Shown here piece by piece: positions 17,512 to 21,888 of a stretch of 64,000 bases of DNA (position 1 is the first letter of the stretch; each line of letters starts with the position of its first letter). The position numbers and the translations under genes were made by a program. Below the pieces are notes generated by a model. It was given only the letters and a program-made list of their open reading frames with translations, was not told where the DNA came from and did not search any database. The stretch is from the NCBI GenBank assembly GCA_010356995.1, contig ML996699.1, positions 154,323 to 218,322 on the forward strand. Reading direction: 5' to 3'. The DNA comes from Trichodelitschia bisporula. Taxonomy: Eukaryota.

Positions 17512-18118
17512 ATGAAGATGGCCCCTGGGAGAGTGGATGTTGGTTGGGGGGGACGAAGCTGGGATACGGCTCACAGCTGCATGTGCACCTTGACAAACGC
17601 GTAGTGCCTGCTCTTCTTTGAGTCGCACGGCATCGACGTTTACCTATGCTCCTACGGCTTTTTCTCTGATCATACATGATACCAATTTGCGGAGGCGTTT
17701 GTCGCGGGTAACGGGAAGCGGAGTAATGGAAACAGAGGAGATAGTTGCCAACATTCTTAAATCAGTGCCGGTACCTGCTTAAGATCAAATGTCCAGTGTC
17801 TGCATTCTTTTCATCTTAACTCGGTCTTCTCGAGTGTAGCCATCTCTGAGTACTCGGATTTCTGCCCCTCTACCGTAGTCCGCCTATGACGCACTTCTGT
17901 CGGCCCGTGCCTGACCCGCTTCTCCTCCCCCTGGTGCCCCACGTCGATCGCTTGCGCTGTGCGAGGGGTCATGGGCCCTGGCATGTGTCTTTCTGACATC
18001 GAAACAACAGAACAAGAACATCAACTTGGAACCGATTCTCCATCTCTCCATCTCTCTCCGTCTCCCTCTCTTTCTCCTTCCACATTCCCACACTCATACA
18101 CAACATCACCCAGCCACC

Positions 18119-20850
18119 ATGTCGCACCGTAGAGTCAAGGGAGTGTCGTACGATGGTGACTACGATGGCGACGATTATGACGATGACGGTGGCGACGAGA
18201 ACGGTAAGCTTCAAACCCGCAGTCCAGCGCTCGCGTCATGCGCTAACATTCTCAGTGATCTCCCCTGAGGACCGAGGTATGCGGTTGCAAGACGGCCGTG
18301 TACATGCTCACGATGCAGAACAATTGCGCCTCGGCGCCGTCGAGGTCCGTCGGCAGCTCGGTGATGTCGCTGTGACGGACAAGGAAGTTCTCGATGCACT
18401 GTGGTACTACTACTTCGACACCGACAAGACGGTCTCATACCTTAAGAGTGCGGCTCTTTCTTCATTTACGACGACTAGCTAACCCCAGCCAGACCTTCGC
18501 AAACCTACACCGAAGCCTGCTACAAAGAAGCCGAAGGAGAAGAAGGAGACTCCGTTTGACAAGGCTGCTGCTGCTGCGCAGAAGAACCCAGTTGGTGAGC
18601 CTCTCCTCCCTAAAATGCGCCCCCCCGAAATGCGTCCCACATACTGCCCGCCGGAGACTGGCCGCCTGGAGAAACATCGCAAACTGGGTACGCCCTGCGC
18701 ACACTTTCAGTGCTTCAGCTGATCCCGGCAGACCGCGCGCGTATGACGTTCCCTCTACCTTTTGTCAATCCGTTGCCGGCTTCGGCCTACTTCGATATCC
18801 CCTTGGGCAAGGTGCCGCGCCAACTCAACGCGAACCTCATCCATATGCCTATGTACCCTCCCGGCGGCCTCCTAGGCGGTGCACCACCCAAAGTCTCCAA
18901 GCTGGCAGCCCTTGCCGCGGCGAAGAAGAAAAAAATCGAAGAGGAGAAAAAGGTCGCCGCCCCGGCCGCCCCGGCCACGGATCGCGCCATTGCACTGCTC
19001 GACCGATTAACTCTGCACAAGGAGAACGCCCCTGGCAGTTCGGTCAGCCTGCGCAGCGTACCCCTCCCCGAACCCGCTGTGCAGCAGCGTCCCAAGCGCG
19101 CGTCCAGTCCCTCCAAAGAGCCCGCTCCGGATACCAAGCGCTCGAAGCCCACCGAGGCGCCTCGGGCACCCCGGGCGCTCTCCGCAGCGCCTTCGAGCTT
19201 TGCCATGGCCCTCTTCGTGGGCCGGCCTCCTGTCCCAGATGTCCGGTCTCCTAACCAGCAGGCGGGCAGCATGTTTTCTCCTTGCTTTTCATACACGAGC
19301 GAGTTGTTTGCTGAACACAACCCATTCGCAGGACCTAGCCCGGACGACATTGTGCTCAATGCGCAGAAAGGTCCGCGGCGGTCCTGATGGCCAGAACACT
19401 GGGCTGATGCATGTAAACAGGAGCAAAAGGCAAAGCCACAAAAGGCAATGCCGCGAAGCAAGAGCCCGATCTTGCACAAGGGGTGGCGGAGCTTGCGCTG
19501 GAGGGGTCACCCAAAAAGCACAAGAATCTCAATGTTGTAGAGGAGTATAAGAAGGCAAATATGAAGCATTCGGCTAGCTTTGTGGTCATCGGTTCGTAGC
19601 TTACTATCCCGTACCGCTCGGCACTCACATGTACAGGCCATGTCGACCACGGCAAGAGCACACTGATGGGGCGCTTGCTCCTTGAGCTCGGCGCCATTGA
19701 TACGAAAGCCGTCGACAAGCTGCGCCACCAGTCGAAAAAGGCTGGCAAGGCCTCCTTCGCGCTCGCCTGGGTAATGGACTCGACACCCGACGAGCGCTCC
19801 CGCGGCGTCACTGTCGACGTCGCAACGAACTACTTCGAGACGCCGAAGACGCGTTTCACCATCCTCGACGCGCCGGGGCACCGCGACTTCATTCCTAACA
19901 TGATTGCCGGCGCCAGCCAGGCTGATTTTGCAGTGCTGGTGGTGGATGCGGGCACGAACAGCTTTGAATCCGGCTTGCGCGGCCAGACCAAGGAACATGC
20001 GCTGCTGGTACGCTCTCTCGGCGTGACACGCCTCGTCGTTGCTGTGAACAAGATGGATATGGCCAATTGGGCGGAGGAGCGCTTCACCGAGATCTCGCAG
20101 CAACTGAGTGCGTTCCTAACCGCTGCCGGTTTCGCGCCCAAAAACGTCAGTTTCATCCCCGTCGCCGGTCTCCGCGGCGATAACATCGCAGCCGCACCCA
20201 CCGCTCCGGAGGCAGCTTGGTATAAGGGTCCGACGCTCGTCGCCGCCCTCGACGCTGCCGAGCCCTCGGCTCAGGCCCTTGAGGCTCCACTACGGCTGAC
20301 CGTCGCCGAAGTCTTTCGCCAGGCCGCTCACCCAACCTCGATTGCAGGCCGCATCGACTCCGGCACCATGCAGCCGGGCGATGCGCTCGTAATTGCACCG
20401 TCAGGAGCTACAGCCACAGTGCGTGCCATCGACATCGGCGGCAAATCCAGCGCGTGGGCCGTGGCCGGGCAGATCGCAGTCGTGCACCTAGGCGAGCTAG
20501 AAGGCAACATCAAGGTTGGAGACGTGGCGTGTGCGGCGGGAGCGGTCGTGCAGGTGGCCCACCGCTTCACAGTCAAGATTCTGGCGTTCGAGCATGTGTT
20601 ACCTATGTTTGTGGATGTTATGCGGGGGACGGCGGGCGTGGCCGGCCGGGTTGCGGGCCTGGTTGCCACGCTGGATAAGGCGAGTGGTGCTGTTGTGCGT
20701 AAGAAACCTCGTGTTGTGCCCCCGGGGCAGGTGGCGAGGGTTACGGTTGTTGTGGATGAGGGGGTGCCGCTTGAGGTTGGCTGGCGGGTTGTGTTGCGTG
20801 CTGAGGGGCAGAGTGTGGCGGCTGGGTTGGTGGAGGGGGTGGAGGAGTAG
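18119..20850 (+). CDS. HBS1: Hbs1 translational GTPase gene with an alternative Ski7-type exon
   Basis: HBS1_N region (DKEVLDALWYYYFD) and GTPase motifs GHVDHGKST, DAPGH, NKMD. Introns 18204-18255, 18277-18318, 18448-18492, 18595 (or 18688)-18731, 19371-19420, 19592-19636. The internal exon 18732-19370 carries SKLAALAAAKKKK, AAPSSFA and PFAGPSPDDIV. Confidence 0.93.
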
Positions 20851-20969
20851 GTGGGAGTGGTAGGAGCGGCTGGCGACTTCTTGATGCCGTGGGACTTTCT
20901 CAATGGGGATGTATCACGCCTGGGGCCTGCTTGGTGGCGCGTTCAGATTTCGGAGAGATATCCAGCAAC

Positions 20970-21054
20970 CACTCCGACAGACGTAGTCGACACGTAATCA
21001 AGCTACGTTGACACTCCGGCAGACGTAGTCGTCGACGTAATCAAGCTGCGTTGA
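20970..21054. repeat. Imperfect direct tandem repeat, 2 x ~42 bp
   Basis: cactccgacagacgtagtcgacacgtaatcaagctacgttga is followed by cactccggcagacgtagtcgtcgacgtaatcaagctgcgttga. Confidence 0.85.
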
Positions 21055-21888
21055 GTATTTCCTTTCATCGGAGTGGGTGCAGGGTGGACGGGCGTGCTTT
21101 TCCCAGTATCAACGGCAATTGCTCCTTCTCAATATCAACGCCGATGCTCGCTCACACTGTGAACGATAATGCCCCTTTCCTTTCCTTGCGCTCTACGGCA
21201 GGCACCGACTAACTGATGGCACCTACCTCACGGAGTTTGGGAAGCACCGAGTCCGATCTCATACGATTTTGCCACAGGTGGTCGAGTATAAATGCAAGTC
21301 CGTCCTGCGCTCTCTTCTTCATTCTTCATTCTCACTCTCAACCCACCACCCACCACCCACCACCCATCACGCCTCACTTCCACTCATCCACTCAAAATCA
21401 TCACTTAATTGCAAGCCCGGTTCGAGTCCAAACGGTCCATGCAGGCTTGCTAGCTCTGCTGCTCACCACTCAATACCTCTGACTGGTACACTATTCAATA
21501 CCTTGCCGACGCTTACGTGGACGATCACCAGTCATTCCACACATTCGTGGTAGTCATCGGCTCATTGATCCCCCCCAACCCAAGAGGTTTGGGAGCCACG
21601 AGGACCCGATCCATTCATCTTGTTTGGGATGGGATATATAACAGATGTCCCCGCACCTTGCTTTTCAGTCACCACATCATCTACCTTCATACCTTCTCAA
21701 CTGGCCCGCAACTACTCAACTTGCTCCGGCTCTCAGTTAATTTCGACCGTACCTACCTTCACCGCACCTCCTTCCATACCTTGCAAGTCGGCTCGTGAAG
21801 GCCCCGCTTGTTGTCGACCATCCTCTATATATACCCCTCTCCCCTCCACTCTTCGACAGACAACGCACTCTTCGACTACCTCCACAAA

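Follow-up and report, generated by a model that had tools for sequence, protein, structure and literature searches.

The SKI7/HBS1 gene is a textbook example of a locus whose two protein products have distinct tasks, one as an adaptor of the exosome and the other as a GTPase in ribosome rescue. We analysed a window of 64,000 nucleotides (nt), meaning the whole stretch studied here, taken from contig ML996699.1 of Trichodelitschia bisporula, a dung fungus of the Dothideomycetes (Phaeotrichales). Positions 18119-20850 on its + strand are, with a probability of roughly 85%, a single-locus SKI7/HBS1 gene that is spliced in three ways. All testable defining features of an alternatively spliced fungal SKI7/HBS1 locus were found there. 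We observed directly the junctions of two short, Hbs1-type splice forms, the exon body of a long, Ski7-type form, a 50-nt intron behind that exon, and the homology of the exon's motifs. The locus is the known fungal arrangement in a slightly richer form, well confirmed and with a modest new twist: relative to the ascomycete cases compared, a third acceptor, whose use also removes the Patch 4-like motif S3, forms the most abundant junction here.

The splice forms were read from contigs, not reads, of two sequencing runs (X1 and X2) that belong to one sample of one study. The runs are labelled RNA only as a guess; we treated them as spliced RNA because their contigs, placed on 17800-21200, carry seven GT..AG joints. 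The contigs match the window with 0 mismatches. Contig building drops rare variants and short, low-depth branches, so that missing cover is uninformative. Intron coordinates are given after the stated cut shifts of the joint listing, and depths are given for X1 and X2 in that order:

18204-18255, + strand: intron, 52 nt, RNA joint
18277-18318, + strand: intron, 42 nt, RNA joint
18448-18492, + strand: intron, 45 nt, RNA joint
18595-19420, + strand: intron, 826 nt, joint 18594/19421, depth 224.1 and 646.3
18595-19331, + strand: intron, 737 nt, joint 18594/19332, depth 116.5 and 318.9
19371-19420, + strand: intron, 50 nt, joint 19370/19421, depth 121.7 and 322
19592-19636, + strand: intron, 45 nt, RNA joint

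A 630-nt contig over 18731-19360 (depth 32.2 in X1, 92.8 in X2), starting one base ahead of the acceptor at 18732, covers the body of the long exon. Both runs thus contain RNA for a long form that includes the Ski7 region as well as for short forms lacking it. By depth, full skip, mini-exon and long exon take shares of 0.60, 0.31 and 0.09 in X1 and of 0.61, 0.30 and 0.09 in X2, and all three splice forms are in frame. The 639-nt exon (18732-19370) is phase 1 at both ends, G18594 and G19370 each being the first base of a codon, and removal of 18595-19420 (826 nt, GT..AG) preserves the frame. A preliminary description, made from the sequence, had proposed these relations together with the skip 18594/19421 and the 50-nt intron joined at 19370/19421; both joints occur exactly so in the RNA contigs, and its central claim that one gene makes a Ski7-type form (exon 18732-19370) and an Hbs1-type form (18594/19421) is borne out. 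Its set of isoforms held for the Ski7-type and full-skip forms and missed the abundant third junction, 18594/19332.

Exon 3 encodes the HBS1 N-terminal domain (Pfam PF08938, HBS1_N, E 7.2e-13; 49.2 bits, cut-off 26.4), and 19636-20847 encodes a translational GTPase (GTP_EFTU, E 2.9e-48). In the latter, GTP_EFTU_D3 (31.4 bits) and GTP-eEF1A_C (28.4 bits) both exceed their cut-offs, GTP_EFTU_D2 scores 22.2 bits, under its cut-off of 30.3, and GHVDHGKST, DAPGH and NKMD are seen in the translation. Pfam placed no family on the 639-nt exon and none on the linker exon behind it. The gene is intron-rich, runs on the + strand from an ATG at 18119 to a TAG at 20848-20850, and is laid out as follows:

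18119..18203, + strand: exon 1, acidic N-terminus, ATG 18119; seen in the sequence, with RNA joint 18203/18256, and identical to public protein P0001
18256..18276, + strand: exon 2, 21 nt, flanked by the 52-nt and 42-nt introns; both joints in contigs of both runs
18319..18447, + strand: exon 3, HBS1 N-terminal domain (Pfam HBS1_N); followed by a 45-nt intron with an RNA joint
18493..18594, + strand: exon 4, common to all forms, ending at the phase-1 donor GTGAGC (18595); RNA contigs stop or branch there
18595..18687, + strand: optional in-frame 93-nt extension to a second donor, GTACGC (18688); open frame, coding in the P0001 model
18688..18731, + strand: putative intron, 44 nt, GTACGC..CAG, with a CTGAT branch-like site; seen in the sequence, sharing its acceptor with the 137-nt intron 18595-18731
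18732..19370, + strand: Ski7-specific exon, 639 nt; 630-nt RNA contig, alignment with 40 relatives, profile matches in the Protein Data Bank (PDB)
19332..19370, + strand: mini-exon, 39 nt, from the distal 3' splice site ttcgcAG/G; RNA joint 18594/19332, AG kept in 27 of 35 clusters of related loci
19371..19420, + strand: intron, 50 nt, with non-consensus donor GTCCGC and in-frame TGA at 19385-19387; RNA joint 19370/19421
19421..19591, + strand: Lys-rich linker exon, in all GTPase-bearing forms; contigs and joints, then the 45-nt intron 19592-19636 (GTTCGT)
19637..20850, + strand: eEF1A-like translational GTPase (G domain, domains 2 and 3), TAG 20848-20850; Pfam, RNA contig to 21073 (X1) and 21091 (X2)

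A word-indexed search with the exon peptide returned the T. bisporula protein P0001 (817 amino acids, aa), 100% identical and an exact match to the isoform model built with the second donor at 18688. The deposited annotation consists of this long form only, the class that is least abundant in the RNA contigs, and leaves the 573-aa and 586-aa Hbs1 forms unannotated. Fungal proteomes annotated with a single model for each gene thus overlook the Hbs1 forms of this locus.

The Ski7 character of the long exon lies in its motifs. It encodes LLGG..SKLAALAAAKKKK, LLDRL, AAPSSFAMAL (SKI7-like) and NPFAGPSPDDIVLNAQK (Patch 4-like, or S3). [quoted passage not shown] Against PDB sequences the A1 profile gave five matches at E<=10. 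The best was human 'Isoform 2 of HBS1-like protein' (9g8m_E, E 3.7e-6), with PSxFA and SPDDIV both aligned; yeast Ski7 followed in four entries (8qcf_L, 1.9e-4; 8qca_E, 4.9e-4; 5jea_K, 0.029; 5g06_P, 0.032). The chains 9g8m_E and 8qcf_L come from solved exosome structures. Taken with the 357 relatives and the exact RNA joints, these matches put the described features beyond coincidence. The earlier reading that the exon carries SKLAALAAAKKKK, AAPSSFA and PFAGPSPDDIV, and that such motifs align with those of Ski7 and HBS1L, agrees with both results. Its further statement that PSPDD is the exosome-binding motif needs tempering: the motif does align with the human isoform, but in HBS1LV3 the contribution of PFDF..SPDDIV to exosome binding is minor, the chief determinant being the RxxxFxxxL/SKI7-like motif, according to the available text of Kalisiak 2017 (PMC5389692).

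The junction 18594/19332 leaves a 39-nt mini-exon, 19332-19370, that reads (G)PSPDDIVLNAQK(G). Its acceptor, ttcgcAG/G, lies within the codons for PFAG-PSPDD, and the joint splits PFAG from PSPDD. The portion of Marshall 2013 available to us (PMC3597508) shows that Lachancea kluyveri, Aspergillus nidulans and Saitoella complicata choose between two 3' splice sites of a single intron, which is located just upstream of motif S3; S1 and S2 fall between these sites and hence occur in the long form only. From the Figure S5 legend of that paper and Kalisiak's citation of PFDFxxxSPDDIVKxNQ, S3 appears to be the PFDF..SPDDIV motif. Because S3 appears to equal the SPDD motif and the acceptor lies just upstream of it, we infer that 18594/19332 is the classical ascomycete Hbs1 junction.

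We then looked for this acceptor in related DNA. Scanning metagenome contigs with A1 yielded 80 loci, 79 of them with PSPDD, which together with the window were grouped at 70% identity into 42 clusters. The AG of the distal site spans two codons: its A is the last base of the codon standing two places ahead of the P, and its G opens the codon that follows. Of the 35 clusters with a codon starting in G at that place, 27 have the AG, against a background frequency of 0.278 for A at such third positions (binomial 1.9e-9, relatedness ignored), and it is retained through changes of the encoded residue (TCA, ACA, CTA). The remaining 7 clusters have Lys there, with a codon ending in AG in 4 of the 7. 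In two loci (L068 and L078) the frame continues past SPDD into the GTPase with no intron between; the AG before PSPDD is still kept, and the layout is that of the plain alternative-3'-site architecture.

The donor behind the mini-exon is weak, as the preliminary description had it, and it is weak in relatives too. A downstream linker motif, which the donor survey relied on, was found in 27 of the 42 clusters and was lacking in 15; we dropped eight clusters whose top candidate donor lay off the AAR G/GT place, as well as L003 (a GC donor) and L078 (no intron), which left 17. In these the donor resembles GT[T/C/G]CG; position +3 is a purine in 3/17, +5 is G in 16/17 and +6 is T in 0/17. The upstream donor homologous to 18595 is phase 1 with a purine at +3 in all 16 placeable clusters, and the contrast between strong and weak donor at +3 (16/16 vs 3/17) is significant by Fisher's test (~1e-6). 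A conserved weak donor behind an exon of 39-48 nt fits selection for skipping, as judged from sequence; it is also what retention of the following intron would need. We consider that the weak donor at 19371 is probably what permits skipping of the small exon. In three related loci (L003, L024, L033) GGC TCG CTT stands where others have G/GT, and the intron seems to start with GC or to have a moved donor; the read-through tail, SLAS followed by TGA, is identical in all three.

Put together, the mRNAs have in common exons 1-4 (acidic N-terminus and HBS1_N) and the 3' part (linker and eEF1A-like GTPase), and the strong phase-1 donor at 18595 pairs with one of three phase-1 acceptors. Pairing with 18732 would keep the whole 639-nt exon and give a Ski7-type protein of 786 aa, or of 817 aa if donor 18688 replaces 18595, with both exosome-binding motifs. 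Pairing with 19332 keeps the 39-nt mini-exon only and gives an Hbs1-type product, 586 aa long, in which PSPDDIVLNAQK is still present. Pairing with 19421, the full skip, gives a 573-aa Hbs1 devoid of any Ski7 motif. By homology with the L. kluyveri, yeast and human proteins, the long form would be the adaptor between Ski complex and exosome and the short forms would be partners of Dom34.

Several points weigh against this account. The RNA comes from a single biological sample and as contigs instead of reads, which makes the depths rough, and the contig flow is unbalanced, with a depth of 551 upstream vs ~373 summed over the three outflows. The joint from exon 4 to the long exon (18594/18732) is absent from the contig listing, in contigs that lose low-depth branches. 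The functions of the isoforms are predictions by homology. Thirteen residues separate the short forms from each other, and one of the two could be non-functional splicing noise. Single-copy status is presumed, and a second HBS1 or SKI7 copy may exist. The conservation statistics, finally, treat related metagenome loci as independent.

Of the alternatives, the one that survives best concerns the upstream boundary of the long exon. Here the Ski7 form would bypass 18595 and use donor 18688 with the 44-nt intron, so that two small introns sit within the large one; we hold this as a tentative possibility, short of an even chance. The preliminary description had placed GTACGC (18688) 93 nt past the first donor (18595) and in frame, and this is correct: the 31 codons between are open, and the donor defines a 44-nt GT..AG intron with CTGAT ~10 nt ahead of the AG and a size like that of the other introns (52, 42, 45, 50 and 45 nt). 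P0001 is identical to the second-donor model. The start of the long-exon contig one base before 18732 implies, by de Bruijn graph reasoning, at least two upstream contexts, for which 18594/18732, 18687/18732 and unspliced RNA are the candidates. Past the 18595-type donor, 6 of 16 clusters of relatives likewise have a frame that runs without a stop into the Ski7 exon. On the other hand, neither X1 nor X2 has any depth in the bin 18598-18711, and 18687/18732 is unlisted, which counts little where low-depth branches are dropped; 18595 is a conserved, consensus-like donor in 16/16 clusters; and the Venturia models, compared by eye, lack anything equivalent to the 31 added residues. Within the L003 cluster, the sole one tested, changes in the read-through fall at 18, 17 and 14 by codon position, vs 21, 20 and 50 in the exon, and one of its three members has a closed frame, so that the stretch evolves like non-coding DNA. 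We rejected the open read-through of relatives (6/16) as support for a coding extension in that cluster, which shows no third-position excess. As an observation in its own right, the intron past the 18595-type donor is a stop-free multiple of three in L003, L026, L027, L030, L034 and L066, and such in-frame retention into the Ski7 exon is, at 6 of 16 clusters, far above chance.

By a second alternative, only one short form would be functional, and either the full skip or the mini-exon form would be tolerated in-frame splicing noise. The 13 residues by which the short forms differ lie in a disordered linker, and both forms were seen in one sample only. PFAG is moreover coded by a pyrimidine run followed by CAG/G, so that the conserved peptide alone makes the site acceptor-like and it could be used merely for that. 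Yet 18594/19421 and 18594/19332 are both several-fold deeper than the long exon in both runs, the AG at a synonymous position is kept far over background, the conserved weak donor behind the mini-exon fits selection for skipping, and the acceptor at 19332 belongs to the distal-site class shown experimentally in ascomycetes (PMC3597508, in the portion available). We judge it unlikely that one of the short forms is noise.

The weakest alternative adds a fourth product. Long-exon transcripts would retain the 50-nt intron and end at TGA 19385-19387, giving a GTPase-less Ski7 of 330 aa (361 aa with the second donor) that holds the N-terminus and both exosome motifs, much like HBS1LV3. We think this doubtful, more so than splicing noise. 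Read-through of GTCCGC (19371) does give G-P-R-R-S and then TGA 19385-19387, as had been described, so that the required stop lies behind the donor; the non-consensus donor is kept in relatives (purine at +3 in 3/17, T at +6 in 0/17); and an in-frame stop is present in the intron of all 17 usable relatives, compared with 13/17 and 11/17 for the other two frames (Fisher 0.010). A stop no more than 17 nt in is found in 7/17 vs 6/34 (p 0.07). Selection for nonsense-mediated decay of retained introns would, however, call for such stops just as well, as would TRA motifs resembling branch sites, so that their conservation is not specific, and 25 of 42 clusters had been excluded ahead of the stop count.

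Proteins and depths bear on the same point. Among 265 fetched homologous proteins, 146 are open reading frame (ORF) calls that end 14-58 residues past the S of SPDD, and one of these, P0049 (406 aa), stops likewise in an annotated Aspergillus genome. These short proteins are mostly ORF calls on unspliced DNA, silent on expression, and their tails are unconserved past the donor-derived codon. The depth at 19370/19421 (121.7 and 322) is near that of the mini-exon joint alone (116.5 and 318.9) and not that of mini-exon plus long exon (148.7 and 411.7), as retention would have it, but this arithmetic lies within contig noise. For the same reason we rejected the depth of the 69-nt contig across 19370/19421 as a decisive retention test, since flows are ~30% off elsewhere in the gene. 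The intron positions 19371-19419 are without contig cover in X1 and X2, which is uninformative either way. A basidiomycete precedent has been proposed in which the intron after the alternative exon is perhaps unspliced and the product has no GTPase domain (PMC3597508, in the portion available). Given that proposal by Marshall 2013, a GTPase-less form here, even if true, is an extension and not a new principle.

By eye, the early stop behind the weak donor is often part of a YTGAY word that resembles a branch site, between about +8 and +20 of the intron. Examples are CTGAT here (19383-19387) and TTGAT, TTGAC and GTGAT in relatives, and close to its 3' end the intron has another word of this kind. 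In T. bisporula a CTGAT is found 16 nt ahead of the AG of 19371-19420.

Returning to the three-way gene, we can ask how far the arrangement might extend. In Pezizomycotina generally, this place may work as a switch with three or four outcomes, including a GTPase-less Ski7 made by way of the weak donor and its conserved early in-frame stop; as a general statement we regard this as speculative and improbable. In such a switch the strong donor may join the proximal acceptor (Ski7), an internal acceptor before PSPDD, or the acceptor of the next intron, with all choices phase 1 and in frame and the donor of the mini-exon deliberately kept weak. The internal acceptor may give an Hbs1 that keeps the Csl4-binding Patch 4/S3 motif, and the next acceptor one that lacks it. 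If this is true, the capacity for exosome binding would be tuned in graded steps and not between two states. The weak mini-exon donor and the conservation of the AG at a synonymous site make two ideas testable: that Hbs1 with and without Patch 4/S3 differ in function, and that fungi, like vertebrates, make a GTPase-less Ski7.

Downstream of the coding region, the 3' untranslated region (RNA-covered to 21073 in X1 and 21091 in X2) contains at 20970-21054 two adjoining direct repeats of 20 nt, both of which occur in two copies with 95% identity. The copies are 42-43 nt apart, which indicates a tandem duplication of ~42 nt, and the duplication is flanked by a 16-nt inverted repeat (20962-20977 and 21068-21083).

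Within the library searched, a query combining Ski7, Hbs1 and Pezizomycotina found only PMC3597508, and among the matches listed for Trichodelitschia none dealt with a SKI7/HBS1 gene. We compared the locus with known systems on the portions available of the three papers cited. One likeness is to human HBS1LV3, the vertebrate Ski7 (PMC5389692; PDB 9g8m_E), which likewise has its N-terminus in common with Hbs1 and carries the SKI7-like (RxxxFxxxL) region and PFDFxxxSPDDIVKxNQ, both aligned by the fungal profile at E 3.7e-6. HBS1LV3 is without a GTPase through an alternative last exon, whereas the confirmed T. bisporula forms all keep the GTPase; a truncated form in T. bisporula is only a possibility. 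The plant HBS1/SKI7 genes (Arabidopsis At5g10630, Selaginella LOC9652039; PMC6143672) produce the same combinations as the mini-exon and full-skip forms. They have a zinc finger and another exon structure, whereas here both motifs stand in one 639-nt exon that an internal acceptor splits.

Further likenesses are to the fungal genes of Marshall 2013 (PMC3597508). In the basidiomycetes Cryptococcus neoformans and Ustilago maydis, Hbs1 arises by skipping the Ski7-specific exon or exons, which parallels 18594/19421, and the GTPase-less Ski7 proposed there from an unspliced downstream intron parallels the read-through idea discussed above. In L. kluyveri, A. nidulans and Saitoella complicata, one gene likewise joins a single donor to either of its 3' splice sites, with Ski7, carrying S1 and S2, made from the proximal site and Hbs1 from the distal one; the corresponding acceptors here are 18732 and 19332. 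Isoform-specific function is shown, in the portion of the paper available, for L. kluyveri only. Compared with what that portion describes for these ascomycetes, T. bisporula has the extra intron 19371-19420 past S3, whose acceptor is the third and most abundant choice, and it combines the ascomycete alternative 3' site with the exon skipping of basidiomycetes. A dothideomycete is hereby added to the known cases, with RNA for both fungal mechanisms in one gene.

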